From Amphiscolops sp. MND2022 (Eukaryota), in contig OZ076415.1 in the NCBI GenBank assembly GCA_964187785.1, positions 53,320,001 to 53,384,000 on the forward strand: a DNA stretch of 64,000 nt, written 5' to 3'. Shown one piece after another: positions 4,169 through 56,026 of the stretch. The translations under genes were made by a program, and so were the position numbers. The notes beneath the pieces were generated by a model. That model was not told the origin of the DNA. It made no database searches and saw nothing but the letters and a program-made list of their open reading frames with translations. Numbering within the stretch: position 1 is the first letter of the stretch; each line of letters opens with the position of its first letter.

Positions 4169-6043
4169 TGTCGCCGGTTTACCCGTGCGAGATGTCCGGA
4201 GTGCAACATCGATGAAACAGTCAACGCTGCTTACCCATCATGATGGCTGTCTACCCAAATATGGACAAGAACTTGATAAACATTTCAAACTTTAAACTTA
4301 AACAACCCTTGTTATTGTTCGTTTGATAAAATGATGCTTTTAGTTGTACATTTCATCTAAAATGACGATTGTTGAATGTTGTTAGTGTTGTTATTGTTTC
4401 ACCCTTAGGGTGCGTTGATCAATTGAAAAAAAACAACTGGAAAGGTAACGCCAAAGTTATCAAAACAGTGCTAAATCTTTGTTTTGAGGTCTTAAATCAT
4501 AAGAAGGAATTAATTTCAGCGGACCTATATATCTTTGCTACATTAAATCATTTGTAATTCAATCATGAGGAAAACAATCAAAACCAGTATGCTGATCCAT
4601 TTAAAAATCAGCATAACGATTTCGTACGCTTATTTGATACTGATTATGCGGCATTATGCAGTTTTCATAAAACAGCATATGCGGTGTTATTAAAGAAACA
4701 GCATAACGATTGTGTACGCAGTGTAGTTTATACTTTGTATTGCATTACGCGGAAATTCAGTAGAAACAGCATGATGTCTTGAGTTAAAAACAGCATATGC
4801 GGAAATTCAGTAGATACAGCATATGCGGAAATCTAGCAGAAACAGCATGATGACATGTGTTAAAAACAGCATATGCGGAAATCTAGCAGAAACAGTATGA
4901 TGGTTCAGATGGGATACAGCATATGCGGAAACCCCGTGGAAACAGTAGGACGTTTCAATGTAGGAACAGCTTATGCGGGATTTTGACAGAAACAGTATGG
5001 CGTTTTAACTTAAAAACAGTATAAAGATTCTTATTTCAGTTGATAAAATTATACTGAATTATGAGGTTTTCATGAGACAGCATATTATGCATTATGATGT
5101 AAAACAGCATAATTTGCAGGATTTCCATTGCTACGATGTTGTAAGTCACAGTGCTATATTTAGACCTTCCAGGAGTCTGACACAATATTACATTTTTAAC
5201 ATTTGACCCTAGAAACATGACGTTATGATGATTTGCATAAAATTGAAAGTCATGTAACTAAAAATAGTACCCAATAAGATCAGTTGAAAGAGGACCATGA
5301 AAAACCATTCTTCTAACGATCATTCGAAAAATAGCGCACATTCAGAGCAGTCACTCATTTTCACAAACAACTCACAACCCACAAACTTCGCAGTTTCCTT
5401 TCTCTGTAAAATACCTTCCACAGTTTCATTTCGCCAAAATATCTTTGTAATTCAAAGATTTTCGCACCTAACATTGTTTTCATCATGGGAAACAGAAGAA
5501 ATAGACGATCAAGGAGAGTAGAGTCCCAGTCATCAGACAGAGACGAAAATACTTCAGAAACAAGCTTCACTCAAGGTAATGCGAATTTAGTTGGTGTTTC
5601 TGAAAATGTTAATAATGTTCTTGACAGGAACTTAGGCAGCGAACTAACAGAACCTTCTCAGATAAGCATTGAGATAGAAGTTATTTCACAAAGGCTAGCA
5701 GAACAGAATAACGACAAGATGTCACAGATTGAAGAGCAACTAAATAACAAGTTCGAAGAGATACTTAAGGAGATTGGAACAAACAAAACCCACATTGTAA
5801 AAACTGATGAAGAGGATGTCGAGAACAATCAGCCCGGTCCTTCTAACTATAAAAATAAGGGTCTCAGGAACAAACACGCATCAAATTCAACATCAGATAA
5901 AAATAAAAATCAGGATGACCGGTTCTATCCGTCTGAAATGTGTGAGTTAAGACAACCGTACACTCCTCTTGGGATTGCTGAAGACACTTTAGACAAAACC
6001 ATCATCAGAAATGAAAACAGACAGGAAAGGGCCGATCATCACA
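4169..6043 (+). repeat. 5' LTR (visible part)
   Basis: Colinear with 19009-20882 with scattered substitutions. Homology stops exactly at CATCACA|TGGTGAC. Confidence 0.9.
4770..5000. repeat. Degenerate ~22-24 bp repeat (AAACAGCATATGCGGAAA) inside LTR; second copy ~19610-19860
   Basis: Recurrent ACAGCATATGCGG and ACAGTATGA motifs visible in both LTR copies. Confidence 0.7.
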
Positions 6044-7110
6044 TGGTGACAGGACCTACCAAGAACATCCTGAGACAAAGTTCGACTAACTCCAACACCA
6101 CAAATACACAAGGACCACACGCACAAACCCCTCTCGAGCATCCTGAACCAACAAATTCAGTCAGTCAAATTGCCATAGCAATCGAAAATCTCGCACGAAG
6201 AAATACCGAACCATCCCTTTTTCACCCGAAGAACACACTTACTTTCAACGGGAAATTAGAGAAAAATGAAAAATTCGAGTATTTTGAAGATCTTTTCCAT
6301 ACAACACTCAAAATGCAACCACACCTCACAGAAAACATGAAAATCAACCATTTTCATGCTCATCTAAGAGGACTGGCATTGAAAACTTTTAAAAACATCC
6401 AAAGAACTCCGACAACAACACTTGAAGATATACTAGTAGTCTTCAGAAGGAAATATGTCAAGCCTGAATCCAGCGCCTCTGCAAAACACAGATTTAACCA
6501 GCTCATGTTCCAACCAGAAAATCAAAAACTACCCGACTTTCTTGAAGACCTCCAAGAAAGCGCTGAGAGAGCCTTCGGCGAAGCAGCACCACAGATGATT
6601 GAGAGCCTGATATATGCAAAAATGCCCCCTCATCTCAAAAAATCAATCAACCAGGCTTTCCTCGAAAACGGTACCTATGAACAAATAGTGGAACATCTAG
6701 AAAGAAAGATGGAGCTCAATGGACTCGAAGCAGATGAGCCCCTAGCGAAAACTCAAATGACTGCAGTCAAACAACAAACCAACATACAAAACACTAGAAC
6801 ACCCCCACAAAACACACTTCAAGATAACCAATGCCGATATTGCAAAGATGAAGGGCACATAGCAAAAGAGTGCCCAAAACTTGCAAAACGACAGAAAATG
6901 GATCAAGACCCAGAAGCACCAAGATGTTCCCATTGTAACACCCCTGGTCATGAAGAACCAAATTGTTACTTCGGAGCAAACATGGAAAATCGTCCACCTA
7001 AATGGACACTCACTGAAACCCAGAAAAAACTAATTGAAGAATATAAAAAATCAAACAAACCAATCAACCCTCGAAATCTCAAACCTTCAACATCGAAAGA
7101 TTTAAACTGA
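5485..7110 (+). CDS. gag: Gag (541 aa) with two CCHC zinc knuckles; the first 186 codons lie within the LTR
   Basis: Open 541-aa ORF with a retrotransposon capsid-like core (TFNGK..EKFEYFEDLF...) and CRYCKDEGHIAKEC and CSHCNTPGHEEPNC. Confidence 0.9.
   Translation: MGNRRNRRSRRVESQSSDRDENTSETSFTQGNANLVGVSENVNNVLDRNLGSELTEPSQISIEIEVISQRLAEQNNDKMSQIEEQLNNKFEEILKEIGTNKTHIVKTDEEDVENNQPGPSNYKNKGLRNKHASNSTSDKNKNQDDRFYPSEMCELRQPYTPLGIAEDTLDKTIIRNENRQERADHHMVTGPTKNILRQSSTNSNTTNTQGPHAQTPLEHPEPTNSVSQIAIAIENLARRNTEPSLFHPKNTLTFNGKLEKNEKFEYFEDLFHTTLKMQPHLTENMKINHFHAHLRGLALKTFKNIQRTPTTTLEDILVVFRRKYVKPESSASAKHRFNQLMFQPENQKLPDFLEDLQESAERAFGEAAPQMIESLIYAKMPPHLKKSINQAFLENGTYEQIVEHLERKMELNGLEADEPLAKTQMTAVKQQTNIQNTRTPPQNTLQDNQCRYCKDEGHIAKECPKLAKRQKMDQDPEAPRCSHCNTPGHEEPNCYFGANMENRPPKWTLTETQKKLIEEYKKSNKPINPRNLKPSTSKDLN
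6044..6055 (+). promoter_or_regulatory. Primer-binding site (tRNA-Leu-like)
   Basis: TGGTGACAGGAC directly after the LTR-terminal CA. It resembles the complement of a tRNA-Leu 3' end (TGGTGTCAGGAG) at 10/12 nt, compared from memory. Confidence 0.65.
7101..7107 (+). promoter_or_regulatory. -1 ribosomal frameshift slippery site T_TTA_AAC
   Basis: The heptamer sits immediately before the gag stop (7108-7110) in the X_XXY_YYZ register, and the pol ORF at 7335 is in the -1 frame. Confidence 0.75.
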
Positions 7111-10100
7111 TAAAAACACGCCTTCAAACAACAACACCCCAAAAACAATGCTAAGTTGATGACTGGCAGCATCCGCCGAGCCCCAAACCTATAAAAATCA
7201 CAACCTACAATCACAACGCGACAAACAAAAGTGACTCTCCGACTGCAAACACTCAAAATACACCACCCGACCACCTTCAAGAGGATCTTTATGACTTATT
7301 CAAAGATGCCCCAGATAATTATCTACTACGATCCATGTTTGAACCTGAAACTGAAACCGAAACACAAAATCAGCAACCCACAATCTCGCGACCTCAGGAA
7401 ACACAAACTGACCAATTAAAAGTACAATCCACATCGACAACCCAAACTGACGATGACACTACATCGGAACTAACCAACACTCTCTTTAGTGCGTCTCCTG
7501 GAAAACAACCTCTCCTTGATGCCGACGTTTTTAATCACCTCACAACAGACGAAGGTAATAACCTTTCCACAAACCTTACCCTCAAAAAGAAGCGTAATAT
7601 GTACTATTTCCCAATGGATTTCGAGAAATTAACTCTGGATGGACTCATTGATACTGGCGCCCTTACAAGCGCCATTTCTGAAGAAGATCTCAACAAAATA
7701 AAACTCCTTTCAAACGAAGCCATAAAAGATACTGGTCCAGCACCCAATTTTCAAATCATGGTGGCAAATGGTCAACTTGAGCGACCCATCAGCACCGTTT
7801 TACTTCAATTCGAAGTAGCAGATTTCCAATTTCAAGAGAACTTCATTGTCATGAAGGTACTACCCAACCCATTATTCGGCCTGTGTTTTTTAGAAAGACA
7901 CAATGCCATGTTCGACATTCGTCAAAGGATTATTACTTTCCCTTACCTGTCGATGCAACTACGACCAAACCACACAACAAATACCCGAACAACAACACCC
8001 CTTCTAACAGAAACTTCATACACCCTACAACCTGGAGAAACCCTCGCGATCTCCAGCAAAATGCCACACCTGATAGATCACAATGCCACAGGTATTGTCA
8101 CTCCATCATCACATATGGAAGATCACGAAAGTATTTTCATTACATCTTCCCTATGTACGGTTAATAACAATGCAGTGGGCTACCAAGTGATCAATTTTTC
8201 GGATATGCCATACACTCTTCCTATAGATACACACATGGCAGACTTCCGAGTTCTTACGCCCGAACAGATTAAACACATCAAACCTGTTGATCCATCAACC
8301 CTCACATTCATGATCCACCAACACATCGAAAACACGGATCTATACCTCAACCAATTGATGAAAACAAATCAATCATCGGATGAACCAGAAACCTACTGGT
8401 TCCCTACACCTGAGGAACTTGGGGATCCAGATACAGACACTCCAATACAACAACGCATAAATGATGAACTACTAGAACTCAAACAGCTAGAGCAATTAAA
8501 CCCAAACGACAACGACGAGTCAAGAATGAAATTTCTCAGTCACTTCGACTGGAAGGACACTACCCTAAGCCCGTTCGAAAAACAACACATAGAAGACATT
8601 CTGGTACAATATCACGACATCTTTGCAAGACATTGTTTCGACATAGGTACCAATAGAGAATTCAAGGTCAAACTAACTCCGAATGATGACAGACCAGCCT
8701 ACAGTCAAAGTCTTCCTACACCCATCAACTTCAAGGACGACATAACTGTTGAACTGGCCCTTCTTCATCGTTATGGGATCATCGCGACCCTACCGTTCTC
8801 TAAATACGCAAGCCCTATTTTCGCCCAGAGGAAACCAAACGGACGCCTTCGACTTTTGGTGGATCTGCGCAAAATCAACAACCTCATCACTCAGGACTAC
8901 GTGAACAACAATCACCCAGTTAGCACATTGTCAGATGCAGCACAGCATATGACTGGCAAGAAACTTTTTTGCAAACTTGATTGCTCTCAAGCATATCACT
9001 GCTTGCAAATGGCGGACTACCAGTCCATACAGATGTTAGCCTTTAATTTCGTGAGTCGAACATTTGCATATCGCCGCCTTGCACAAGGACTCAGCCGATC
9101 ACTGTCTGCTTTCTCATAGTTCATGAGAGAATATTTGGATAAGGCAATCAAAGCTGATCAATGCGCTCAATATGTCGATGACATTGGCATCGCTGCGAAT
9201 GATTCTACCCAGCTTTGCATCAACATCAAAACAGTCTTTGAATGCATACGCAAAGCAGGACTCAAACTTACGATGGCCAAATGTCATTTTGGAGTCAAAC
9301 AAGTTGACTTCTTGGGTCGGACAATTACACCAGAAGGAGTCTCTCCACAAACTGAAAAAGTCAAACAATTCCTCCAAAAACTCAAATTTCCGAAATCCAA
9401 AAAAGCACTTCAGAGATATATTGGGTTTCTCAACTACTACAGAAACTACATCCCTCGCTTATCAGAAAAACTAACCCCCTTTTTCAAATTGCTCAAACAA
9501 ACATCACAATTCTCCATCCCGGATGCAATTCTCGAAGCATTCAAAAGTCGCAACCAGCAACTGGAACAATCATGCAAACTTGCTCTCAAACAACCGATCA
9601 AAAACAAACAACTCATTTTAATGACCGACGCTAGCTTTACAGCGGCAGGATATGCCATCACGAGTGAAGACGATCCTGACCAAAAGCTCCAATCTAGAAG
9701 GAAAAGCTATGCTCCAATAGCTTTTGGTTAGAAAACCTTTAATCCAACCCAAAAATGGCTATATACGCAAAAGAGTTCCTAGCAATCTATTTTGCGTTTT
9801 CTGAATTTGGACACTTGAGGTGGGGCAGCGTTTTTCCTGTTATCGTATTCACAGATAACAGATCTGTAACACGCTTTTTCCAAACCAAAATCATCCCCCG
9901 GCTCTTTGAAATGCATGCGATTACGTCCTCCAATACAATTTCGTCATTGCTTATGTTGCTGGGGCCATGAATACGGCTGCAGACTTCCTATCGCGAGCTG
10001 AATTGAACCCCACAGAAAAACTTGAGATGAACATCCTCAATGATGTCAATACAAAAGCAATTGAAGTTAACATACAGTCCACTGGGGTCGCCGAATAGGA

Positions 10101-12082
10101 ACTCCTATATATACTTCCCGGTGAATGCCCCACAGAACAACAATTGTGGGAAGAAAAAGAAGCAATTCGTCAATCAGCAAAAACTGAAACCCACAACGAA
10201 CCAGAAAACGAAGTGTTCGAACTACAAACTTTCCACAAACCCACAGCGGGAACCATCAACTATAGGGAGGGCCACTTCAAAGACAATGCAAAAATCCGCT
10301 AGGAACAAAACAATGATGAAGTCCTACGCAATTTGAGAGCCAAAATTGAAGGCGAACCCTACGACGAAACACAATTCACACAAGACTACCGATACAAACA
10401 TTATTTACAAAACATCACGAGGAGAGGATTGAAATCAGGCAATATGTCCTAACAAGAAGATACTACAATGTTACTGGGATGATATCCCATTATCAAATTC
10501 TTTTACTCAAACAACTCCTAGATGAATTCTTTCATGCCCTTCATGGTCATAACGCAAACCATCCGGGAATAACCAAAATGATCCAAGAAGCACGACAAAA
10601 TTACTACTACCCGTGTATCGCCAAATATATCCGAAATTGGGTAACAAAATGTCAAATATGCATCCAAAACAAACGGATCAACAATGACCTACTCAAAACG
10701 GAACTACTAAACTGCCCTGAATGGGATTTAGGCCCGGAAGACATCCTACAAATGGACATCCTTCCCAATCTCCCACCAAGCGGAGGATATGACAATATCA
10801 TCACTGCAATAGACGTTTTCTCACGCTATTTGTTTGCCTATCCAGTCACGAGAATCACTGCTCCAGCAGTGGCAGAAATCATTATGGCAATTTTGTGTGA
10901 ACACACATATCTACCCACATCAATCATTACCGAAATGGGCACCCAATTTAATTCTCAGGTTACAAAAGAAGTAGCCGCAGTCCTGAACATAGAACTGAAA
11001 CATGCAACGACAAAACTCGCCCAAACAATCGGACTGTTAGAACGTACTCATCCATCAGTCAAAGCACACCTTAAGGCAGCCACTGGAGAATTTAGAAACA
11101 ATTGGCACAAGTTTTTATCATTGGCGGTCTTAAACCATAATACAACCTACCATGCAACACTAGGATGTGAACCTACACGGGTCTTCCATGGAAGAATTCC
11201 ACACAATATATTAGATTTAAAACTTGGATACAACCCAAATCCTCGCTTCCAACCCCTAACTGAGGTAGCAGAGGAAGTACAAAGAAGGATTGCTTTACTT
11301 CATGATCAAACGAAGAAAAACATCATGCAATCTTACCTCAAATATAAAGCATATTACGACAGGAAAGCAAAGGCATCACCTCTAACGACAGAGGATTATT
11401 GCTTTATCCTGAATCCAAAGGCCGACACACAAGCCACGAAGATACCCTTTCGTGAATTTCGTTGGGTTGGTCCCTATAAAGTTGAAAAAGTCCTACCGAA
11501 CAATAATTATATTGTTCGCAGATTGGGCACAAATAAAACCCAACTACTCCACCGCATTCGACTACGAAAATACACTCCACAAGCTCCTGTTGCAGATAAT
11601 TTTGTCAGAGAAACTGACTGGCAGAAAGAGGATACACTTGTCTCTCAAGATGATTTATATGCCCATGCTTGGGACAGTAATTTTGGCAGCATTCCATTCG
11701 ATCCTGACCATGAAGTCTGTGATCAACAGGAAGACACAGCGGAACAGAACCTACTCCTGAACCAAAAATATACCACCCTCCCGCCCTCGATAATTCAAAA
11801 AATAGTGGGAGGATCGCAGCAGGACAACCTGCTGCGAACGACAAAGAACCTCAAATAACTGAAAAAACTTATTCAGAAAATGAAAATCATGAGCCCATTC
11901 CAGAAACGTCCCGAAATCCAGATAATATTCAAGCAAACCCTACCCCAAATTCCCCAAAAACCCCTGAAATTATCCCGGGAAATGACGGACAAGAAATTGA
12001 GGAAACTGTTAACACAAGAGGCGAGAAATATAACCTACGCCCAAACCCTAACCCAAACTACTTAGACTCATACAGATATTAA
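7111..12082 (+). pseudogene. pol: Pol polyprotein (protease, RT, RNase H, integrase with GPY/F), several stops and frameshifts
   Basis: LDGLIDTGA (PR); RLLVDLRKIN, KLDCSQAY and QYVDD (RT); LMTDASF and VFTDNR (RH); HGHNANHPG..C..C and DVFSRY (IN); WVGPYKV; terminal NLRPNPNPNY. Confidence 0.95.
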
Positions 12083-12301
12083 AAACAAACTAGAGACTCA
12101 AAGACTTCAACTATATACGACTGCTCTTTCAGCCTCTTAATTCTCAATTTTCTTTCCTTTCGTCAAACAAAACTATAGCCGAAAGGCTTCATAAAGATGA
12201 GCAAACTATTCCAGGTATAAATATCCTGGGAGGAGAACATATGATAAATACACAAACAACAAAATTGCACTAGATAACAAAGCAAAACTACAACAACAGT
12301 T

Positions 12302-12320
12302 GAAAAGGAATGTTAAAACA
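12302..12320 (+). promoter_or_regulatory. Candidate polypurine tract and 3' LTR start (GAAAAGGAA|TGTTAA at 12311)
   Basis: Purine run followed by TG shortly after the pol end. It cannot be confirmed because the matching 5' LTR start is outside the window. Confidence 0.35.
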
Positions 12321-12341
12321 ATTCGAGAGAGAGAGAGAGAT

Positions 12342-15300
12342 CTATTTGTCCCCAGATCTCTTTTTCTTGACAGCCAATTTTTTCGGTGAACTCGGCCTTA
12401 CATCAGGCAGAAATGACACATCAGTAACAACTCGAGACATAGAGACAACAGGTCTGGCAAGATTAGGGGATTTGTTGGAGTTCCTGTCTGCTGGCCCTGA
12501 TGGTCCTGGTCCTGTCTGGATAGGAGTAGGAGTTGCAAATTTAGGAGGGGTCCGGACAACGTTTGAGCCAGATGATTTAGGACTAGTCTGCAGAGATACC
12601 CATAATTTCTCCTCGTCTCTAACTGTACAAGTATAACGGGAATCCAATTGGTTAACAAGCCTTCGCCTCCGAGGAGGTCACATCCCAGACTGACCAATGT
12701 TCATCTTCAAATAAAACATGTTCTCTCCCAAGCAAGGAAAAGACCGAAGACACAGTCATGGGGTTTGTTAATAATTAAGAAGCATTTGGAATCCCCACAA
12801 GAGATGACTGAACACAGCGCACTGAGGAGTTAAAATCGTGGACATCTGAAGCAAGTTCTGGGACACTCAGAATGAAATTCGGTGGAGAAACAATAACACC
12901 AGATGAACTAAGGCAACATAATTTGAATATAGTAAACAAATTCTCTCGGCAATGAAGTTCATAATAGTTGGCAAGAAAAGTAACCCAATCACCTTCGTAG
13001 CTGACTTCATGAGATCTGAACCTTTCAACGAAAGAACGGTATTCACTAAGAATCATGGGCTTGGTTACAGATGAAATCCACTTTTGCCGAATGAAGTAGT
13101 CACAGAGAATTTCTGACTCATGAGTGTAGTCGACTTCCTCGCCATATCGCAGTACAGCTTCGTCAAAGACAGAAAATCCTCTCACAAGCTTGGATTTGCA
13201 TAGCTCATGTTTCAATAAAAGTTCACAAAAGCTCTTGTGGAAGCACAGGACTTGTTCTGCGAAGTGTGTGGGAATCGGTAAATTGCTTTCTGTTACCAAA
13301 CTAGCGAAATCTTTATTCTGCAAAATATCAGCCGTAGTCTTTAAAGGAAGATCAGGAGATGAAAGGTTGATAGACAGAAAACGGTCTCAATCGGAAACGT
13401 CACCGAGGAAAGAATCAGGGAGAATGGTCTCTAGTTGGCTATAGACGAACGTAGCAAAAGAACTATAGACACGGAAATTGCTAGGTGATGGGTGATGAAC
13501 CTCCGGTTACCCCTTTGGAGGCTGATTAATCTAAACATAAAGAATAATAAGCTTGGCACAAACACTGGAACAACCAACAAAAGGACTAACAAGGAAGGAG
13601 GACATTGCGAATCAGATATAATTTGGCAGAGTATGATTTGTCTTTATAGAATGTCTCGTCAAGACTCTTCGGCTGAAAAAAATATCAAGGAATAAGAGAA
13701 GAAAATAATAACCGACTAAACACAAGACCGAGATGAACCTCTTTAATGTGATACTTGAAAGCTTTGAGACGATCAGCCAATCGAAGGTGGGACATAACTT
13801 TATTCCAGTTTTTGCAAAGTTGTTCAAGGATAGCAACGGACTCTTCGTGCGTGTATTTAAGGCTGGAAATGGCCTAAAACAACAATGCTACAATGATATT
13901 ATGGCAAGAAGAAATCAGTATGCGGTTTTCAGAAGAAAACAGCATAAGAAGAAATCAGTAGGCGGTTTTCAGGAGAAAACAGCATGAGAAGAAATCAGTA
14001 TGCGGTTTTCAGAAGAAAACAGCAAAAGAAGAAATCAGTATGCGGTTTCCAGAAGAAAGCAGCATAAGAAGAAATCAATATGGGGTTTTCAGAAGAAAAC
14101 AGCATAAGAAGAAAACAGTATGCGGTTTTCAGAAGAAAACAGCATAAAAAGAAATCAGTATGCGGTTTTCAGGAGAAAACAGCATAAGAAGAAATCAGTA
14201 TGCGGTTTTCAGGAGAAAACAGCATAAGAAGGAATCAGTATGCGGTTTTCAGAAGAAAACAGCATAAGAAGAAATCAGCATGAGGCTTTCACGAGAAAAC
14301 AGCATGGAAAAACAAACTATATCATCTATACCGTTTTCTGGAGAATGCATTACAGGACTCAGAAGAAGACAGCATAAGAGGAAATCAGTATGCAATTCTC
14401 AAATAAAAACAGCAGAAGAAGAAATAATTATGTGATTTTAGAAGAAAACGGCATAAAAGAAAAGGTTTTGAGGCCAACGAAAAGAAACAATATGCCGTAT
14501 ATTGAAAGAAACAGCATGACAAAGTACAGGTTATGCTGTTTGGCTGTATGATGAAAATAGACAAAGTACAACAAAATTCTGACACTCTTTATGCTACCTC
14601 ATGCGGATTTCATAAAACAGCATAGAAACATAATATCCTATATTATGTAGTACCCCCTGTAACGGTACGTCAGATAAATCGAGTCGATACCACTTATTAC
14701 ACAAACCTCGTATGGAAATTTAGAAATGGGACATTAAAAGAATAATGAGAATACTTACTCTACGTAGTTCAGGAAGATCATTGAGCCATACAGATCCGGA
14801 AGCAGTTCGCAATTTCATCAGCAGAAATTGTAACACGCTGTGGTAATCGTAACGATCCAATATTTTAACTGTGGGACCTGCAAGGGCCTTGTCCAAATCC
14901 TCAAAAGAGAAAGTAGGAACGATGCACACAGCTGGGGCCTGAACCAATTCTGTGACAAGAGATTTTGAAGTACGACTATCGAAGCCCGAAAGAGAATGAA
15001 GTGGGGGTATTGCAGGGAATACTGCGAGGAAAGAACAAACAACTTGGAGGATCCACTTGGGGGTGAAGAGAACGTTAGGGACCTCAGCTAGAGGAAGTTG
15101 GTTGAGTACGTTCCCGGACCAAAAAATCAGGAACACTTGCACGTTGTCAAAAGTTGAATTGACTTTGAGAGAAAATTGGCCCGATTGCCCAATAGATGTA
15201 GTGGAATAGGACTACAAAGTTCGAAACATGTGGACAAGGATACCCTGAAATGTAAGGGAAACATCTGAATTGAGGTACACCAAAATATTGAATATCAAAA

Positions 15301-16669
15301 GAATAATACATACGAAAATGCGCCTGTTTCTCCAATCATACTGTGGAACCTTAGTTGGCCCATGAACCTCCAAGCTAAGATTTGCCCAAAGTAAAGACAA
15401 AATATCCGCCTTTCCTCCGTTTTGAAGACCAATGAGCAGAATCCGGACTTGGGAACAAATTACTGCACAAGGTTCCAGATTGTCCGTGGTAACTGGAAGT
15501 TTTCTTTGCCCAGGCAATAGATAACACTCCCCGAGGACAGGTGTGATAGGGATAACAAGCTCAGCTCTTTCACGTGCCTTGTCTAGCTCTTGCCCAGTAA
15601 GCTCTACTTCATCGCGACCATTGAGCGGTAACCCAGGTATCTCCTTTCGGATACGGTGTCCCCGGATTAAGTGTGTACCTGTTCTGTAATGGGACAGTAT
15701 CTCGAGCGACCCTTTGGTCTTAAGAGACAGCTCAATCTGGCAGACTCTACAACGCCACTTGTGTGGGTTGTTTTCAGCATCAATAGGGGCAGTAACGAAA
15801 AACTTGAAAATCGGATGTTTTCTATACACACTTCCTGGTAATTGTAATCGCGGTCTGGGCCTTTTCGACGCAGAAGGATGCTCTCCTTGAGGATCCTGAA
15901 GTTGGCTGCCCTCTCTAATCTGAGTTCATCTTCGACCTCGACGGGCTTTGCGGGAAGTGAGTGAAGGAATTTCTTCAATAGTACTCACAGGAGAAGCAAC
16001 CAGTGACGAGTCAATATGTGTTCCGCTAGTCTCAGTTTGTAACACAGTTGTATTTGTTCCCATAGGAGAAATAGCGAATTGCTCCAATAATCTAGAACTG
16101 ATGGCGGTTGAGACTTCAGACACCAATACCTGCATACGTTGTTCCAGCGCTTGCAAGTCGGAACTAGTAGCAAAAGTAGGGGTAACTGACGGCTGTGAAG
16201 TGGTTGCCATCACAGGTTCTGTGGTAACATGGGCCGCACTCACTTCAGTATTAGGCAAATTAGTCCTGTTCAGGAAACTAGAAAAGGGCGAGTGGCATAT
16301 TTTCTCGGAAGAGGACCCAGTGACGTTGATATCTCCTGACGTATTGTTTGCATCAGAATTCCTGGCTTGAACAGGACTTGTCCTGAGCAGATTCTCAGGC
16401 ACGTTCTTGTTTGGGGAAGTGGGCGCGCTAGGTTGTGCGAGAAAACTAATCGCAGTCTCAGTCACGGGATTGGTATACTCCTCAGGGTCCATGCTTTTAT
16501 CTATGGAGTGCCTTATCCCGTCAGCATCAACAGACGAACCTGGCACTTCCTGGTAACTAAGCTGGTGATCGGGAGTCGAATGGTGAGGTGGATCACCGAA
16601 TGGGAGCAGTAACGCCAGGTTATCGGCGGCGATTGGAGTCCGAGCAAGTGAATCAGAACTATGGGCGAC
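12342..16669 (-). pseudogene. Antisense multi-exon gene inside the Gypsy element: low-complexity N-terminus, BED/C2H2-like zinc finger, helical C-terminal domain
   Basis: GT-AG introns 15313-15245 (69 nt), 14758-13874 (885 nt) and 13738-13673 (66 nt) each preserve frame. Intron 13590-13531 (60 nt) needs a 1-nt correction, and there is an upstream acceptor at 16669. Motif WRCRVC-x16-HYRTGTH. A few premature stops and frameshifts. Confidence 0.75.
13907..14305. repeat. Tandem array, 10 x 40 bp (AGAAGAAATCAGTATGCGGTTTTCAGAAGAAAACAGCATA)
   Basis: TGCGGTTTT or a close variant recurs at exactly 40-bp spacing from 13921 to 14281. Confidence 0.95.
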
Positions 16670-18110
16670 TGAAACACAAGAGAAATCAAGAAATTCAGAA
16701 GATAAGAAATAGTCAAAGACGACAGTCGACTGTTTAAAATAGTGGGAGCCTATTCAACTCTCAATTTAAACAAACAAAACTAGTTCAAAAAATTATTCAC
16801 GACTTGAAACAGGAAATCCGGAATTAAACCTGCGGATAGTTGGTGAAAACTGAAATTTGCTCAACAATCGGAACAGGATACTCAAAAGAGCCTATAATGA
16901 TTGTTTGAAACCAAATCTTTGAACCTACGCACCGTTTTAATTAAATTGGGCCAAAGAAATTCGGAAAATACAAACCTTGTGTTGGCAGCTCGTTAGTCTG
17001 TTCTCCAGTCTCGTTGCATTCCATGAAAGGAAAACGTCCACAACGAAAACTGATATGAAATCCAAAGTATAAAATTGGTGACAGAGAGTAATCAAAATGA
17101 AAATTGAGTTGATGAGATAGTAACTATGACGAGTAGAAGTAAATGGAGAATACTGGTGAGAAAAGTCTGGAAGAAAAAATCAAAATGGATATCTAAATGA
17201 AGATAATGGAAGAAAGAGACAATTAACAATAGGCTGTTTGGGAATTTCTATATGACTAATACTGTTTGACGGAGATAACTAATCAAAACTTTGAGACAAA
17301 GAAGCAATAGAGCGTAAGTATTACAGCAAGGAAGAAGGCGTGGCTATCAACACAAAGGCAACAAAGCAAATGAATGACGTCAGTTTCACAATGTACGCAA
17401 ACCAGCTTAAATCTGATTGGCCGAGAGAGTGCATGTGGCTCGGAAGTATCTGCCAGTGTGACCAAGTTAATAATGCATTCGCTGCTAACTTGACTATGCG
17501 GAAAAGAACGATGAACAGCATAGTGCAGTAATAGAGTTAATGGGTAGAATCATGATGCATTATGATGAATTCAGTGTGCGGCCTATGATGCAAATGACTA
17601 CTTGTTTTCATATCATCTGTAATATGCTGGAAATACGAATCATGTTATTACGTCAGAAGAAGTGAATAATGCTTGAAGGTGTGAAAACTTTCACTTTGAG
17701 AAACCTGAATGAACCTATGATATATTTAATTATGAGCAATTAAAATTATTCAGACGGAATAAGAAGACAATAACCGAAACATAAAAGAAATTGAAAAGAA
17801 AATTTCAGGATCTGATGATTGTTTATATGACATTAACAATTTTACCGGTGCTATTCTCCCATTTTTCACGATAAATTGTCTGAAAACCCGGGGAATGGGT
17901 GATTCGAGATATGTTTTGATGCTATTTGTAAGAAAACCCCCGTAACCCAATAAAAAAACTATAAAATCTTATCATTCTGATCATAAATCTCCAAAAATTA
18001 GTCGCTTGTTTTTCTCTCTCTTTTTGACAAATTCCTTGAGAATTTAATAATCATATTGTGTTAAATCTTCTTGAAACTTGACTGGAATCAAATAAGCCCA
18101 TAGTCAAACA

Positions 18111-19055
18111 ATGGAGAGTACACCACGAAACTCGATCCTTAACAGAACTGATTCAATAAACCCTGCATTGGATCTGATCAACATCTCAAATAGTTCGGGG
18201 GAAGAATTTATAGTGGAGCCCCTCTCAGTGAACGATCTCGATGAAAGATTTAGAACTGTCCCATACACTCTGACAGACATGTCTACAGCTTTTATGGGAG
18301 CAGCAGGAGCAGTATGATTCCCTAATAGTGTTGATTCACAAGCGGGATATGGTCAACAAATTGATACTAGGGACTCCCGTATCGAAAATGAACTAATGGA
18401 TCTCATGGATGACGTATCTAATATATCCTCCCTGACCTTTATCGGATCATCAGAAGAGGAAGATAATCCGTTCCTTGGCGCCAATTTCGCTAATGTGGAT
18501 CAGGCTGAAAGAAACAGCTATGGTCGACCAGTCCAAAGAGTACAACCTATGGTCAGAACCCCACGAGTAACAAGAGCAACAGTGAATCCCCCGCTCGTAC
18601 CAAGTAGCAGAAGCGCTTTCTCAGTGGTTATACCCGAACAATGAAGAGCACCAGAAATACAAACACACCGACCTATGCAAGCTAATTACTTGCCAATGCC
18701 CGTTCCATTTTACCCCAATAATTGGAACAAAATTACACATCCGCAACAAAAGTTTCACGGTCAAACTCAATTTCAACCTCAGGGGCCACCTAACGGGCCC
18801 ATATTGCAGATGAACCCTCCAGTAATGCCTGAAGTGGACGGGTTTTGTGCTGGCTGTTCCAAAACTTATGACCAAATTGCTGTCGAGACGCTCACCCACT
18901 ATGTTGCGTCCGAATATCCTGAAGAAACAATTCGCGATCGCAATGTGAGATCAAGAGCATTTGTTGATGGGTTTGGAGCAGCGCTGATCTGCTTCAAAAA
19001 TGCTGAACTGTCGCCGGCTTACCCGTGCGAGATGTCCGGAGTGCAACATCGATGA
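18111..19055 (+). pseudogene. Extra sense ORF (~314 codons, two premature TGA) upstream of gag; function unknown
   Basis: ORFs 18111-18317, 18396-18644 and 18675-19055 share one frame, separated only by single TGAs at 18315 and 18642. P/Q-rich, with a CAGC motif near the C-terminus. Confidence 0.7.
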
Positions 19056-20882
19056 AACAGTCAACGCTGCTTACCCATCATGATGGCTGTCCTCCCGAAT
19101 ATGGACAAGAACTTGATAAACATTTCAAACTTTAAACTTAAACATTGCTTGTTATTGTTCGTTTGATAAAATGTTGCTTTTAGTTGTACATTTCATCTAA
19201 AATGATGATTGTTGAATGTTGTTATTGTTGTTATTGTTTCACCCTTAGGGTGCGTTGATCAATTAAAAAAACGACTGGAAAGGTAACGCCAAAGTTATTA
19301 AAACAGTGCTAAATCTTTGTTTTGTCGTCTTAAATCATAAGAAGGAATTAATTTCAGCGGACCTATATATCTTTGCTACATTAAATCATTTGTAATTCAA
19401 TCATGAGGAAAACAATCAAAAACAGTATGATGATCCATTTAAAAAGCAGCATAACGATTTCGTACGCTTATTTGATACTGATTATGCGGCATTATGCAGT
19501 TTTCTTAAAACAGCATATGCGGTTTCATTAAAGAAACATCATAATGATTGTGTACGCAGTATAGTTTATACTTTGTATTGCATTACGCGGAAATTCAGTA
19601 GAAACAGCATGATGTCTTGAGTTAAAAACAGCATATGCGGAAATTCAGTAGAAACAGCATATGCGGAAATCTAGCAGAAACAGCATGATGACTTGTGTTA
19701 AAAACAGCATATGCGGAAATCTAACAGAAACAGTATGATGGTTCAGATGGGATACAGCATATGCGGAAACCCCGTGGAAACAGTATGACGTTTCAATGTA
19801 GGAACAGCATATGCGAAAATTTGACAGAAACAGTATGACGTTTTATCTTAAAAACAGTATAAAGATTCTTATTTCAGTTGATAAAATTATACTGAATAAT
19901 GAGGTTTTCATGAGACAGCATATACTGCATTATGATGTAAAACAGCATAATTGGCAGGATTTCCAGTGCTACGATGTTGTAAGTCACAGTGCTATATTTA
20001 GACCTTCCAGGAGTCTCACGCAATATTATATTTTTAAACTTTGACCCTAGAAACATGACTTTATGATGATTTGCATAAAATTGAAAGTCATGTAACTAAA
20101 AATAGTACCCAATAAGATCAGTTGAAAGAAGACCATCAAAAAACCACTCTTCTAACGATCATTCGAAAAATAGCGCACATTCAGAGCAGTCACTCATTTT
20201 CACAAACAACTCACTACCCACAAACTTCGCAGTTTCCTTTCTCTGTAAAATAACTTCCACAGTTTCATTTCGCCAAAATATCTTTGTAATTCAAAGATTT
20301 TCGCACCTAACATTGTTTTCATCATGGGAAACAAGAGAAATAGACGATCAAGGAGAGTAGAGTCCCAATCATCAGACAGAGACGAAAATACTTCAGAAAC
20401 AAGCTTCCCTCAAGGTAATGCGACTTTAGTTGGTGTTTCTAAAAATGTTAATAATGTTCTTGACAGGAACTTACTCAGCGAACTAACAGAACCTTCTCAG
20501 ATAAGCAATGAGATAGAAGTTATTTCACAAAGGCTAGCAGAACAAAATAACGACAAGATGTCACAGATTGAAGAGCAACTAAATAACAAATTCAAAGAGA
20601 TACTTAAGGAGATTAGAACAAACAAAACCCACATTGTAATAACTGATGAAGAGGATGCCGAGAACAATCAGTCCGGTCCTTCTAACTATAAAAATAAGGG
20701 TCTCAGGAACGAACACGCATCAAATTCAACATCAGATAAAAATAAGAATCAGGATGACCGGTTCTATCCGTCTGAAATGTGTGAGTTAAGACAACCGTAC
20801 ACTCCTCTTGGGATTGCTGAAGACACTTTAGACGAAACCATCATCATAAATGAAAACAGACAGGAAAGGGCCGATCATCACA
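19009..20882 (+). repeat. 3' LTR, minimum extent (true start lies further left)
   Basis: Direct repeat of 4169-6043. It ends CATCACA and is followed by unrelated flank (CCTTGC...). Confidence 0.9.
20324..20882 (+). pseudogene. LTR-borne copy of the gag N-terminal 186 codons
   Basis: MGNKRNRRSRRVESQ...ERADHH is near-identical to the start of the 5485 ORF, and identity ends at the LTR boundary. Confidence 0.9.
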
Positions 20883-22487
20883 CCTTGCTTGTTCTTGACG
20901 CACAAACTTTCGTCGTGCGCTCCCGCCTGTGGCCACTCGGAGGCGACAAGCACTCCACAAGCTTTTCGTGATATATTCAATTAGGAAACGCTCTTCGTCT
21001 TCATCCTGAATTGTCCCTCTTGGAAATTTTCTGTTGTGAAAGTACACGAAAAACATTGTTGTGCCACTGCGCGTCTTGTTTTCATTTAGTTTATTCATGC
21101 ACAAAAATCCAAAAATATTGTTCCCCTTGAGCTCTTGTAATTCCTTATGAGAAACAAGGTTATCTCTGTTGCGTTTTGTTTGAAAATTTAACGAAATTTT
21201 TACTCAGTGTCCGCACTTGACGAGGTAATGAACAAAACAAAATGTTTAAAAAAAACAACTATTGAAAGCCAGTTTTAAATTTTAAAATGGTGTCCGAAGT
21301 TTTGCTTTGTATTGGCCTGAATTTTAAAACAATGCTGTTGCCAAAATTATAGAGTGCAAAATTACATCGGTGCTCATAGAACGTCGTTTTGAAAGTACCC
21401 AAGTTGAATTCGCTGGAGAAAATTTCTAGCTGTTTTCTTGCACACAATTTTTTTCACTAAACATGAAAGTTTCTGGCAGCCTGCTTGGAAAACCACTGCA
21501 GTTTAGCGTTCACTGTTTCAATCAAAACTGAAAATACTTCAACCTTTTCACCTTATCAATCTTTAGTTTTTCAAGTATTCAACTTATGAAATTACCTTAG
21601 TCCAATTTCAGGCTAAACGTGACGTTCTTCAATTAAATGAGGCTTCAATGCAATGGTTCCATGGATGGAAACGAACCGAAAAGATTATGTTTTGTCTGAA
21701 GTCATATGATCTCAATGCAACCTTTACATAACAGTTATGATAACCTAGTCAAAATCGACACTAATTGCCATAAAGGATGATTTTTTCGTTTTTGTCGGTT
21801 CTTTTTCGAAAGCAAAGTACCAGTATGATCAAATTAGGTTCGTGAGCCTCGAATCGAAGTCTTGAAACTTTATATAAAACGACTGGGTAATTTGCTGTTC
21901 AGTGACCATCGAAGCTGTTTTGCAACTGTCTACTCGCTTAAACAAAGAATATGTCTTTAGGCCATTCTACTAAGATCACACTTCTTGAGAATTTTTTTCT
22001 TCTGGAGTTTGCGTTTTTTGGTTTATTCACAATTCAAGAAGTGAGGCTCGGTATCTATCCAGTCGTCTTTTTTGAGTCAGAATTAAATAGACAAAATTGA
22101 AGGGACTGAAGCAAGACTTTTGCCTATTGAACTTTTTCTTTCTGAACAAACAAAGTTTAACTTATGTAAACATTGGGGCCTTGTTGGATGCAAGCCGCTT
22201 CGTTTTCGATAGTTGTCTAGAAAGTTTAGTTTATTTGCATTTATACTTATATTTGAAATAAATTGTATGAATTATGTCAGGATTCCATGCATGGAATCAT
22301 GTTGTTCCATACGATTCCACACATGGAAACGAAAAGAAATTTATCGTATGAAACCATTCATGGAATCGCATGTGACGTTGGATCCGGGTTATAGTAAGAC
22401 GGAAAATGATTTTCATTGATTAGGCGGTAGAGATAATGAGGTCTCAGTGGCAAGTAAAAGGAGAATTGGTGTATATAAAATCTTGCC

Positions 22488-24046: not shown

Positions 24047-24564
24047 ACTTCATAGAGGCAAATTGCCGCCAATTTTAGGCAGGTTGATGAAATTGGATAA
24101 AAACAGTGGACGTTCAATGCATGAATATTGTGGCTGTCTGTTAAGTCAGTCTGTCCACTTTGCAGATCTTTCTTGAATAGAAACATCTCTAGAAGCCTCA
24201 TGCTAGACACTTTTAAGGAAACTCCTAGTCGCCGTGTTGTCTGAACTGATAAAATAGCCGATCAATTAAATCAACGGTTCATTAATCTTGAACAGAAGCG
24301 AAATCAGGCTAAATTAAAATGAAATTGAGGTAAAGTTCCATAGTTCCGAAAATGAGTATTTGGTCCCATAGCTCCAAAATACTTATTCCGGAGCTAGATA
24401 AGTATCTCCGAGCGCAAATATGGCATACTTACCACCCGCGTAACGGGAGAAACGTACAACGTGGTGGTGCCGACGGCGTCAGCTTCCACCCCGATTAGCT
24501 ATAAAATCTTTTTAGTAGGCGTTTTTTCCTTGAAAAGAAAAATGACCAAATTTTACTGTGATCT

Positions 24565-25035
24565 TTTTTTCTTCAGACCACAGACCTCACACTGATCGGT
24601 CCACTTTTACAGGAACTACTAAAACTACTCAGGCCAAGTCCGGCCAAGGCAAACTTAGTGCAAATGGTCCCCCTTTAATTTCTTAGTTTTTCAGCGTAAC
24701 CTACAAAACCGGACGAGACTAAAGGGTCCCACCTTTTGATTGTTTTCGGCACTGTGCGGTTTTCTTTCGAAAATTTTTCAATGTCTCAAAAGGATCCCCC
24801 TTCGAGTTTTCTGATATTTTGCAACAGAATGTATGTTAGTAAATCCCAAAAGGTCCCCCCATTTGCATTTTTTGGCACTATGCGACATTTTCCGAGAGGA
24901 AAAAATTCGAGTCTTATCGAGCATGAAAGGCGCCTTTTGGGTGTATCGAAACGTTTTCTGAGCTTTTCATACATACGTCCTGGGCATGTTTTAAAAACTT
25001 AGCGCTTTTTCAGCCTTAGATATAGCGCCGGGTTA
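24565..25035 (+). repeat. Dispersed interspersed repeat; related copies at 56268-56670 (-), ~57300-57600 and ~50040-50100
   Basis: Shared blocks CAGACCACAGACCTCAC, AAAGGGTCCCC and (G)AGCCTTAGAT.TAGCGCC between the copies. Confidence 0.7.
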
Positions 25036-44504: not shown

Positions 44505-45905
44505 TGTTTGAACATTGCCACATTTCCCAGGGAGCTTGGCAAAAGGAAAAAAGAAAAATCCGCGCGACGCGGATTTTCTCCGGCCACCCACTGGGTCGTG
44601 AGAGAAGTCCTACGTACGTGTATGCACTTGTATTGTACATTGGCAATGCGCAAACAACACAAAAACAACATTGCCCCATTGCCCAGGGATCTTGGCAAAA
44701 GGAAAGAATATAAATCCGCGCGGCGCGGATTTTCTCCGGCCAACCACTGGGTCGTGAGACAAGTTCTACGTACGTGTATGCACTTGTATTGTACATTAGC
44801 AATGCGCAAACAACACAAAAACAACAATGACCCATTGCCCAGGGAGCTTGGCAAAAAGAAAAAATAAAAATCCGCGCGGCGCAGATTTTCTCCGGCAACC
44901 TACTGGGTCGTGAGACAAGTCCTACGTACGTGTATGCACTTGTTTTGTACATTGGCAATGCGCAAACAACACAAAGACAACATTTCCCCATTGCCCAGGA
45001 AAGCTTCGCAAAAGGAAAAAAATAAAATCCGCGCAGCGCGGATTTTCTCCGGCCACCCACTAGGTCGTGAGACAAGTCCTACGTTCGTGTATGCACTTCT
45101 ATTGTACATTGGCAATGCGCAAACAACACAAAAACAAAATTGCTTCATTGCCCAGGGAGCTTGGCAAAAGGAAAAATTAAAATCCGCGCGGCGCGGATTT
45201 TCTCCGGCCACCCACTGGGTCGTGAGACAAGTCCTACGTACGTGTATGCACTTGTATTGTACATTGGCAATGCGCAAACAACACAAAAACAACATTGCTT
45301 CATTGCCCAGGGATCTTGGCAAAAGAAAAAATAAAAATCCGCGCGGCGCGGATTTTCTCCGGCCATCCACTGGGTCGTGAGACAAGTTCTACGTACGTGT
45401 ATGCACTTGTATTGTACATTGGCAATGAGCAAACAACACAAAAACAACCTTGCCTCATTGCCCAGGGAGCTTGGCAAAAGGAAAAAAATCCGCGAGGCGT
45501 GGATTTTCTCCGGCCACCCATTAGGTCGCGAGACAAGTCCTACGTACGTGTATGCACTTCTATTGTACATTGGCAATGCGCAAACAACACAAAAACAAAA
45601 TTGCCCCATTGCCCAGTTAGCTTGGCAAAAGGAAAAATTAAAATCCGCGCGACACGGATTTTCTCCGGCCACCCACTGGGTCGTGAGACAAGTCCTACGT
45701 ACGTGTATGCACTTGTATTGTACATTGGCAATGCGCAAACAACACAAAACAATTTTGCCCCATTGCCCAGGGGCTTGGGAAAAGAAAAAAATAAAAATCC
45801 GCGCGGCGCGGATTTTCTCCGGCCACCCACTGGGTCGTGAGACAAGTCCTACATACGTTTATGCACTTGTATTGTACATTGGCAATGCGCAAACACAAAA
45901 ACAAC
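44505..45905. repeat. Tandem array, 9 x ~157 bp, each with hairpin AAAATCCGCG-CGG-CGCGGATTTT
   Basis: Hairpin cores at about 44556, 44712, 44867, 45026, 45180, 45335, 45485, 45638 and 45795. Confidence 0.95.
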
Positions 45906-46060
45906 GTTTTTCACAAGGTCAACTCTTGTATGTGCCTCGAACTTGCCAAAAAATAACAAAAAATTTTTTCGACCTGTACCCTCGTTACAATAAGAAATTC
46001 TATTGACGTTACCAATTTTTTGTTCCTTTTTTTCGAATGATTGTGCAACTTGACTTTTGT

Positions 46061-50321: not shown

Positions 50322-50543
50322 TAAAGTAGAGTTAGAAAAAGGTTCTAAGAATTAAAATAAAGCAGCTCAATGGAATGTTAGCTAGGATCAACACGACTGT
50401 AGTTTATCTTGAAAGTGTATATATGTATAATAGCTACATGACTTCAAACATAGGATCATTGGCTGGTAGTTCTATGTCATTCAGTTCGCTGAGTTTCCTG
50501 ATTGACACTTACTAGATTGACACATGTCGTTACCAGTGTCACA
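50322..50543 (-). repeat. 3' LTR (222 bp)
   Basis: Direct repeat of 56042-56267; starts TGTGACAC on the minus strand. Confidence 0.95.
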
Positions 50544-50554
50544 TTCCCTCCTCT
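50544..50554 (-). promoter_or_regulatory. Polypurine tract AGAGGAGGGAA
   Basis: Purine run directly 5' of the 3' LTR on the minus strand. Confidence 0.85.
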
Positions 50555-50671
50555 GCGGCGTTCAAGGGAACCAGTCTTGCGAGGGTTCGCAGTACCTGAT
50601 CCGAGGAGAAGGGGTGGTGGGGTACCTCTTCGGGATGGCGAAGGTATAAGTGCCTGCTAAATGAACCATGG

Positions 50672-53600
50672 TTAGAAATATTCGACACTACCTAATTTAA
50701 CTACCCTTTTTGCCGTTCTTATCCTTTCGGATCTACGTGGTTCTGAATTTGAATCTAATGAACTACTTTCATCGTTAATATTTTGTTTTAACCGTGCTTT
50801 ACCTGCGTAGCCTTGATCTATTGCCTCAGTGTTGAACGTGTTTTGTCCGGTTGTGTCGTCCGGTTGTGTCGTGTCGGCGGCCAGGGCTATCTCTGTGCTG
50901 CAGCCGATTGGAGAGGTCGGCATCGGCGTTTGTGAACGTATTCGTTCCACTTCCCACCCGATCACGGCCATCAGTGCGGTGTCCTCGGTGGCATCTTCCT
51001 CTTCTGAGGTAGCCCTGTTGGCGTAGTTGCTTGTTGATTCCGAGTCACGGCTGGAGGAATCGTACATCACCACGCGGTTATAAGACCGCTTCTTTTTCGC
51101 TGGCATTGTAGGCATTGTGGTGTGGCTGGTGTTCGGTTCGTTGTTGTTGTCGTCTTGTTTGGCGGCCTCGAGACGTAGATGCGTTTCGCACAATTCGCCG
51201 CTACTGAACTTTCCACATCTGCGGCATCTGTTTGTTGGTCTCCTCTGGTCCTCGGGCTTTCTTGGTGTCTGAAAATTCATAAGCTTTGATGCTATTTTTT
51301 TATGTATTACCCTCCCTTCGGAGGTGGTTACTGTGTGTCCTGTTTCGGGTACTGCTGTTAAAATTTTCTTTGTTTTAAAACCGCATTTCATAGAATTCGG
51401 TTTGTTTTCCTTTTCGTAGAACTGGTAATTTTTAAAATCCCGGCTCACCGAACGGCCTTTTTTCTTCGTTTCGTTGAGTACCAGGTAGTCTGCCATCTCT
51501 CCTTCTGAGTCGTTTATGGTGACTACTTAAAGTTCTGTCGGTTGAGCTGAAATATAACTGGTTAATGTTCTCTTCCAATTGGATAGTACACATTCTGGCT
51601 TATCTATCAAATTGGTTAGAGCAGTGCCTGGCTTTCTGCCTAAATGCATCTGAAAATGTGTCATTTTCAATCTGCTATGTGGCGTCAGTCTAATTGATTT
51701 ATCGCTAATTGGACACTATCTTCAAAGGTTAGGCCGTCTGCCATGTTTGCTCTGGTAAATAATTTAATTGTCCGTATAACTCGCTCGACTAAACCGGTAC
51801 CGGTGTGTAAATTAGGCGTGCACCTTATACTTTTAATCTTTTGACCGTCGCAAAACTACTTTTAGAACAACTACCGTTGTCGGTTCGAATAACCCGTGGC
51901 GTTCCATTGTCCGTAAATTATTTCGTTAAAAGTTTTGGGACGGTCCGTGAGTCCGTGCTGTTACAGATATGCGCGGTCGGCCATTTGCTAAAACGGTCAA
52001 TGGCTACTAGAATATATACATCGCCGCGTGTTTTCGATTTGATTGGACCGGCGAAGTCCAATTGGATTTCTTGGTTCGGTTCGGTTGAAATCTCTAGGTT
52101 ATTTTTTTCCGTGGACGGAATTCGAGTAATAATACTCTTACCTGCGGCCCTACAACTTGAGCATGGTTTGGCCTTCTCGTGAACTTCACGGTTCATTCCT
52201 GGCCACCAGAAGGCTCCTGCTAGTTGTTCCATCTTTCCAGGCGACGTGTGTCTGTGATGCAACATGGCAATTACTGTTGTCCGCATATTCTTTGGAATCA
52301 CGATCTTGTCGTTGTAGAACAACAGTCCGAATCTTGTGGATAGGTGTGATCGATGTGGGCGGTAAGGATAAAATATGCTGTCCATTTGTTGATTTTCGAT
52401 GGCAGCAATTGCGTTGAGTAACTTTATATCTCGCGCTGTTTCATCTACGAGGAGAGGAAGATCTAGCGCAAAGTGCTTTTCCACTCTTTTGATGGCTTCT
52501 TCGGTGTTATCATTCTGGTCGGCACTAAGTAGGTTTTTCTTTGCCGTCTGTTTAAGTCTGATCAAATTCACGGTCTCGTGGTGTTTCTTGAATTTCCTCA
52601 AGGCATTTGTCGGGCATTTGTCCTGTTTGGTCCGGCTGGTTTCGCTTTCCCCGCCCGACTGGTCGCTATGTAGCCAGGATTCGTTGTTGTTTTGTTGGTA
52701 TTCCAACAAAGGGGTCGTCCAAGTTGTTTCGCAGTATTGGAAGAAGCGGTTATAGATCTCGATATTAAGTTCTACTATCCTCTTTCTGCTGGCTTGGTTT
52801 GGCCGATACTCCCGTATCCGCTCACTCTCTTTACCTTTTCCAACCATTCGTGTCCGGTCTGGTTTCAGTAGTTGGTTTCTCTTGATCCACAAGCGTTTGG
52901 TTTCCGGGGAGTGGCCTCTCTTCTTGCATATAAAGTTCATGTCAATGCCGTTGACTTTGTCCATTCTTGAATTTGGTAATTTGCGATTTATGGCGTTAAT
53001 GCTAATTGACTGTGGTGAGGTTTCGAACAAATGAGTGTTTGAATTTTGTTCGCGTACGTTCTTATCGCGCTGTGATTGGTCTAAATTTTCTCTCGCGTTC
53101 AGTTGTTCGGGGAATCGTTTTATGCTTCCTCGCTCTCGGTTGAACTCAAATAAACCGTATATTTGATTGACGACGAACTCCTCGTTGGCTTCTGCTTCGT
53201 TTCGTCCGTCGGCTTTGTTTTCTAGTTCGGCTATTTCGGTCGGTGCGATAAGATGACGTCTTCGGTAATCCGTTAGCGGAATGTTTTTGCCGGCTGTGTA
53301 CTGAATAGTAACATCGAAATGGCTCAGCCTATCCAACCAACGAGTCAGCCGTGCGCTGTATTGTTTATGTGCCCGGTTCTTTTTCAGTAATGGTTGTAAT
53401 GCCTGGTGATCTGTCAGCAATTTTACTCTCTTACCGTAAACGTAATACCTGAAATGCTCTAATCTCCATAAAGCTCCCAACAATTCTAATTCATTTATTG
53501 CGTATTTTCTTTCGGAATCGGTTAAAAATCTACTGGCAAAAGAAATGGGTCTAAGTAGTACACGTTCCTTTTGCCACAAGGTCGCACCCAGTCCAGTGTT

Positions 53601-55099: not shown

Positions 55100-55112
55100 C
55101 TTGGCAAAATGT

Positions 55113-56013: not shown

Positions 56014-56026
56014 TGTTTCGTTCAGA

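Follow-up and report, generated by a model that had tools for sequence, protein, structure and literature searches.

The window, a 64,000-nt stretch of contig OZ076415.1 from a 1.07-Gb eukaryotic assembly (labelled G000), contains a Ty3/Gypsy long terminal repeat (LTR) retrotransposon that carries, between pol and its 3' LTR, a six-exon gene of ~1,099 codons on the minus strand, antisense to the element. The copy in this stretch is referred to here as the window copy, and the other loci compared with it bear L numbers. The class of the element is evident from its anatomy: a TG...CA LTR pair, an identical 5-bp target-site duplication at both ends (within the 4–6 bp of the class), a primer-binding site (PBS), and plus-strand Pfam matches to gag, protease (PR), reverse transcriptase (RT), RNase H (RH), as well as integrase (INT), in Ty3/Gypsy order. 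The two LTRs of the window copy are 96.2% identical when compared with each other, and among 20 other copies, four have pol as a single open reading frame (ORF) of ~1,670–1,680 aa. At 16.7 kb overall, with ~13 kb internal (relatives 15.7–17.2 kb), the element does not merit the name "giant" given to it in the original prediction, since the criterion in the available part of PMC6431247 is an internal region >20 kb. The gag frame opens in the LTR and reads through the PBS (5410–6055), so that the 3' LTR repeats the first ~190 gag codons (20249–20971); the start within the LTR and the run through the PBS are found in most relatives as well. No clear purine run precedes the 3' LTR (18984–19008) in the window clade, though the sequence there is conserved, and copies of a far lineage described below have a short purine-rich patch (eight copies shown).

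The four introns named in the original prediction run from GT to AG exactly where it had placed them (69, 885, 66, and 60 nt), and the further acceptor that it had noticed at 16669 closes a 307-nt phase-1 intron (16975–16669), upstream of which lies a 49-nt ATG exon (17024–16976) that it had overlooked. The 1-nt fix that it had assumed at 13590–13531 is unnecessary: this intron is in phase 1 after an 82-nt exon, as the last exon is open in that phase for at least 396 codons in 8 of 17 other close copies, and the frame break belongs to the window copy and lies inside the last exon (13491–13497), not at the intron. A second break is found near 12672, so that exon 6 of the window copy has two frame breaks and two stops, with one further stop each in exons 2 and 3; the stops of this copy fall at 15926–15928, 15212–15214, 13387–13389, and 12775–12777. 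A canonical AATAAA was looked for downstream of the gene's stop and was not found.

Table 1. Features of the retrotransposon and of its antisense gene, in window coordinates
Feature	Position	Strand	Description
5' LTR	4169..6043	+	TG...CA, 1875 nt; AAAC(A/C)GCAT array at 4670-5110; gag begins inside
PBS (TGG...)	6044..6055	+	Inside gag frame; start identical in every lineage examined
gag	5410..7110	+	CCHC knuckle; weak Ty3 capsid match (Pfam)
pol	7155..11858	+	PR-RT-RH-INT; broken in window copy
3' LTR	19009..20882	+	Motif array 19508-19948; duplicated 5' part of gag (ORF 20249-20971)
Exchangeable cassette	12107..17490	-	Whole antisense transcription unit; sharp identity switch points
Coding exon 1	16976..17024	-	ATG, 49 nt; equivalent ATG exons with phase-1 donor in diverged copies
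Intron 1	16669..16975	-	307 nt, phase 1
Exon 2	15314..16668	-	~260-aa Ser/Thr/Pro/acidic region, KRPRPR basic patch, C2H2 zinc finger, SGG/GG helix region
Intron 2	15245..15313	-	69 nt, phase 0; missing from intron-less-core lineage
Exon 3	14759..15244	-	162 codons; one stop in window copy
Intron 3	13874..14758	-	885 nt, phase 0; 40-nt tandem array; missing from far lineage
Exon 4	13739..13873	-	45 codons; invariant Trp
Intron 4	13673..13738	-	66 nt, phase 0
Exon 5	13591..13672	-	82 nt in almost all intron-bearing copies modelled
Intron 5	13531..13590	-	Phase 1; 60 nt in window copy, 64-65 in close copies
Exon 6	12342..13530	-	~396 codons; all-helical domain and basic C-terminal tail

The exon junctions are borne out by the other copies of the element in the genome. 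Nineteen close copies were fetched, of which 17 spanned the region and two, truncated, were dropped; in these together with the window copy (18 in all), 178 of 180 intron ends are canonical, and all six exons are open in three. Canonical GT or AG is also found at 153 of 159 projected ends in 20 further loci with 39–100% exon identity, where the introns differ in length (67–76, 423–1087, 62–76, and 63–138 nt for introns 2 to 5), and at 146 of 158 in 20 more diverged loci, four of the 12 misses corresponding to the precise disappearance of intron 5 from two copies. In these two, L120 and L122, the intron is gone to the nucleotide while introns 2–4 are kept, and its absence is a loss, since both nest among intron-bearing relatives; so precise a loss implies that the antisense mRNA was spliced and a copy of it then put back into the element. 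In L224 and L232 intron 3 seems at first to be missing; what these loci have is a short in-frame intron, and a loss was rejected for them. In the far lineage, whose RT-RH is 62–65% identical to that of the window and whose accessory protein is only ~20% identical, introns 2, 4, and 5 are retained at unchanged codon positions; exons 3 and 4 are fused into exactly 207 codons (9 of 15 loci, those that the motif script could model), exon 5 again measures 82 nt, and there is one more acceptor, upstream of the finger. In a third lineage, with at least 99 members at 74–100% identity, the core is a single ORF (726, 820, or 839 aa in the examples obtained) that reads straight across the four core junctions, without any additional block. 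The integrase tree relating these elements is unrooted, no outgroup having been recovered. These four genomic lines of evidence support splicing and, as far as sequence comparison can do so, confirm that the junctions are real. It is established for retroelements that introns on the strand opposite to the genomic RNA remain unspliced in it and so survive reverse transcription.

The gene is a fixed component of the lineage. A 15-mer joining the LTR end to the PBS has 1302 exact matches in the assembly, against 0 for the control, and when every fifth of the first 100 listed PBS sites was taken, all on contig C1 (n = 20), 16 had an integrase, and in every one of these 16 the antisense gene was present as well; a further site had the gene but no integrase in view, and three had neither. 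The segment, as had been predicted, is therefore carried by other copies of the element. A dN/dS-type comparison between copies, also called for at the outset, was made on 17 close copies (one near-duplicate dropped) over 621 codons. Variants shared by at least two copies show a ratio of nonsynonymous to synonymous polymorphism (pN/pS) of 0.09 and no stop, whereas singletons show 0.57 and nine stops, a contrast that shows selection while the element replicates and decay after insertion. Consistently, pol decays in the same copies. Many copies of the element are young, with LTR pairs up to 99.5–99.96% identical. Among 50% representatives, 279 related proteins were found at E ≤0.001; none of the ten distant ones checked has a name. 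One relative (P0140) is identical in this assembly, and another (P0145) has its best match there at 29%, so at least one other assembly must hold the family. No copy of the gene outside the element was found among the loci whose surroundings were examined, no homologue of greater length among the 7,998 candidates of a profile search, and no confirmed locus in metagenome scans, which may leave out records near this genome. With its fixation, purifying selection, and natural intron-less homologues, the case for a dedicated spliced accessory gene is strong.

A rival reading takes the segment for a nested DNA transposon or host gene that hitch-hikes in the element without function, or the splice model for a chance join of ORFs. 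The broken window copy and the scarcity of close copies with all six exons open (3/18) could be quoted in favor of this. The breaks, however, are singletons, as expected after insertion, with pol decaying alongside; position and orientation are the same in lineages with RT-RH only 62–65% identical to the window's; and the natural intron-less ORFs reproduce the junctions. Highly improbable, this explanation is already refuted by these observations and by the precise loss of intron 5, the selection, and the fixation described above.

Comparison of the copies has also highlighted the antisense unit as a block with a history of its own. Identity between elements falls abruptly downstream of pol and rises again upstream of the 3' LTR, at ~12107 and ~17490 in window coordinates. 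Pairs with nearly the same RT differ deeply in exon 6 (99.2% versus 65.6% in L071/L077, 99.1% versus 71.3% in L078/L080, and 99.0% versus 64.9% in L088/L120). Synonymous sites of the cassette are saturated, with a pol dS of 0.04–0.13 (L071/L077, L078/L080, and L071/L075), and the accessory protein has a dN of 0.18–0.31 against 0.01–0.06 for pol. The RT and exon-6 trees agree on three deep clades and appear to conflict in the branching within them, as judged by informal comparison of the trees. Taken together, these sequence patterns indicate that the antisense cassette is exchanged as a block between gag-pol backbones, and template switching in the homologous flanks would account for its inheritance in this form. 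The 5' part of exon 2 shows no DNA-level alignment between exchanged cassettes, unlike the adjoining intron 1 and exon 1 (16669–16993), which keep 70–75% identity; a cis element in this region is possible. Of the copies at L051–L052 and L053–L054, one has most of the cassette duplicated in tandem and another carries an insertion of ~8.5 kb in intron 3.

As for the protein itself, the C2H2 zinc-finger ligands are near-invariant across copies, and basic patches resembling nuclear localization signals (NLS) flank the finger and end the protein. Exon 3 aligns, weakly, to the RNase H-like β strands of hAT transposases and may be the corresponding part of a hAT fold. The motif register is collinear with hATs over ~560 columns, and the resemblance is greatest to the THAP12/ZMYM1 (DUF4371) group, not to Ac-like or BED-type transposases. 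In hAT profile comparisons, hhalign gave a P of 0.09–0.11, and the summed posterior exceeded all decoys in two runs and was not recovered in a third. A model of exon 6 rose in predicted local distance difference test score (pLDDT) from 44 with 14 sequences to 79.5 with 33, and the top fold match, involving the C-terminal half, is Hermes, with nothing at E ≤0.001 when Foldseek was run against PDB and viral models. Sequence searches of the exons and the intron-less ORFs in Pfam and PDB returned nothing above cut-off, with no significant match to the hAT families PF05699 and PF14291; the BED zinc finger (PF02892) matched 2 of 12 members, at best with E = 0.049. Compared by HMM and by profile, the Ac-like hATs of this genome gave a negative result. 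A DUF4371 search in this assembly gave two weak matches, below cut-off, and the same genome contains a THAP12/PRKRIR-type hAT transposase (L205, G000:C2:63664700-63669700), which was the seed of the hAT profile. No inverted repeat of ≥40 nt surrounds the segment, shorter ones not having been sought. On this evidence, we consider a hAT ancestry probable. The proposal that the gene was possibly hAT/ZBED-derived thereby finds weak support, with an affinity to the THAP12/ZMYM1 (DUF4371) group rather than to BED-type hATs. The catalytic residues are not conserved: neither a D-D-E triad nor a CxxH was found, the columns equivalent to the first Asp and to the Glu being unconstrained, with their assignment resting on a weak alignment, and a GFDG resembling the second Asp occurs in the window clade only. 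The protein has thus likely lost hAT catalysis and would be a dead transposase.

A candidate target for such a protein is found in the element. The window contains 35 occurrences of the 9-nt motif AAAC(A/C)GCAT where 1.9 would be expected, and 33 of these lie in the LTRs and intron 3; in the latter, each 40-nt unit holds it twice, as an inverted pair. The motif is common to the LTR and the cassette throughout the window clade, and the idea that it tracks the cassette allele was therefore not supported. A related motif is amplified in the L127–L129 clade, and little amplification is seen in the L088 clade and the far lineage. In L128 and L129 the array lies in a long intron 5 rather than in intron 3.

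These results allow us to propose a model in which a Ty3/Gypsy lineage with a fixed antisense gene uses its product, likely a dead hAT-type transposase, to sustain transcription against silencing. A separate antisense mRNA, driven by a promoter near 17024–17490, would be spliced to give a catalytically dead hAT-type transposase that retains its finger; the protein would enter the nucleus, bind DNA at the short motifs in the LTR and introns of its own element, and raise expression as an activator or anti-silencer. We give this model slightly less than an even chance. The same binding evidence would serve a self-repressor equally well, one that controls copy number by dampening the element or its siblings, possibly with the help of antisense double-stranded RNA, which antisense transcripts can form (available part of PMC7264820); deeply diverged cassettes on near-identical backbones would suit such a competition between siblings. 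The lineage is, however, abundant and young (1302 PBS sites, LTR pairs up to 99.5–99.96%), and the long N-terminus, acidic and with Ser/Thr/Pro, would better suit an activation region. Repression seems to us improbable, ahead only of the functionless passenger dealt with above.

A protein of the same ancestry might also act on the DNA copy rather than on transcription, binding LTRs in the cDNA or in the pre-integration complex to assist nuclear import, end pairing, or chromatin tethering. The motif arrays in both LTRs, the NLS-like patches beside the finger and at the protein end, the presence of the gene wherever integrase is found, and the import function suggested for plant antisense ORFs in the available part of PMC7264820 would all agree with this. 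The biggest array, however, is internal, in an intron rather than at the element ends, no shared sequence is obvious by eye among the 5-bp target duplications, and the window's other Gypsy element (50322–56267, ~5.9 kb) could not accommodate such a gene; we regard this role as doubtful, if a little less so than repression. A last explanation, unlikely and marginally more credible than the DNA-copy role, accepts the gene and denies either its hAT origin or its action on element DNA, making it a captured or novel zinc-finger protein directed at host defence, RNA export, or a task useful to the host. The absence of a significant sequence or fold match speaks for it, as does the excess of protein dN over that of pol noted above, as in host-parasite conflict. 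The collinear hAT register and the Hermes match argue to the contrary, and so do the lack of a non-element copy among the loci examined and the selection among close copies, which is strongly purifying and not positive. The activator model can be extended, more tentatively still than when taken by itself, to an LTR lineage that has domesticated a dead hAT transposase as a multi-intron antisense gene, with trans-acting anti-silencing through the LTR arrays and dozens of old, exchangeable alleles moving between near-identical gag-pol backbones.

The second Gypsy element just mentioned is compact, lies on the minus strand, and has LTRs of ~225 nt. Elsewhere in the window, inverted repeats of ~100 nt (78%) enclose ~21 kb with many broken minus-strand ORFs (26042–47001), a protein-primed DNA polymerase fragment (PF03175, 37058–37780) and a 156-nt tandem array (44511–45908), a segment that we take to be a decayed Polinton/Maverick-type element. 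An ORF with PAN and C-type lectin domains lies at 59414–60337, and degenerate inverted repeats 31 kb apart are found at 24551–24859 and 56332–56644. The hAT, C-type lectin, and polB fragments make an animal host likely.

From a wider point of view, antisense accessory ORFs gain from this family a probable origin, in a dead DNA transposase, together with a candidate target motif, and their function can be tested directly on its hundreds of young copies, among which alleles have been swapped naturally. The family shows that a multi-intron gene can persist, and change its introns, in an element that replicates through RNA and, if our account is right, documents how introns have been gained and lost within a replicating retroelement. 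Standard annotation misses such genes because their exons resemble short orphan ORFs. With 1302 PBS sites and elements of ~16 kb, this lineage may account for one percent of the genome or more, by a rough estimate.

Antisense ORFs between pol and the 3' LTR (aORF-3R) are already known from the plant elements Retand, Grande, and RIRE2 and the fungal Boty, and, according to the available parts of PMC7264820 and PMC11963269, they too occur in nearly all copies, are accompanied by tandem arrays between pol and LTR, and are probably nuclear; their origin and function are stated as unknown in the former. The gene described here differs in its five spliceosomal introns, whose presence varies with the lineage (no mention of "intron" was found in the available part of PMC11963269), in its exchange as a block between backbones, in having neither the TRP28 domain (PF04195) of the Retand type nor any other Pfam match, and in its probable hAT origin, the review of the plant ORFs stating no similarity to other transposable elements. 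Among animal Gypsy-like elements with extra coding capacity, the planarian Burro exceeds 30 kb and has its additional domains mostly in the sense polyprotein, "antisense" being absent from the available part of PMC6431247, and the ORF3s of bdelloid elements are described as env, GDSL, and DEDDy types (PMC5408684, in the part available). The literature searched, outside subscription journals and Repbase, yielded no antisense gene in an LTR element that is at once multi-intron, derived from a transposase, and exchangeable, so that this form appears to be unreported there. The THAP12/PRKRIR-ZMYM1 (DUF4371) hATs, with Hermes as structural model, have a similar core length and motif order; the protein here differs from them in lacking the conserved D, D, E, and CxxH and any Pfam hit, in its ~260-aa disordered N-terminus, and in being encoded by a fixed passenger of an LTR element. 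The closest parallels in anatomy are VANC of VANDAL and TnpA of Spm, non-catalytic proteins encoded by elements with motif arrays in their non-coding parts (PMC5735166, available part), TnpA being derived from a transposase (bioRxiv 10.64898/2026.08.24.746577, in whose available text "LTR" and "retrotransposon" do not occur as whole words). A dead transposase that keeps its finger alongside amplified non-coding motifs would have just this anatomy, a likeness of organization. TnpA and VANC serve plant class II elements, whereas the enzyme here would have passed from class II to a class I element; if the model holds, the system would be their class I counterpart in a probable animal genome.
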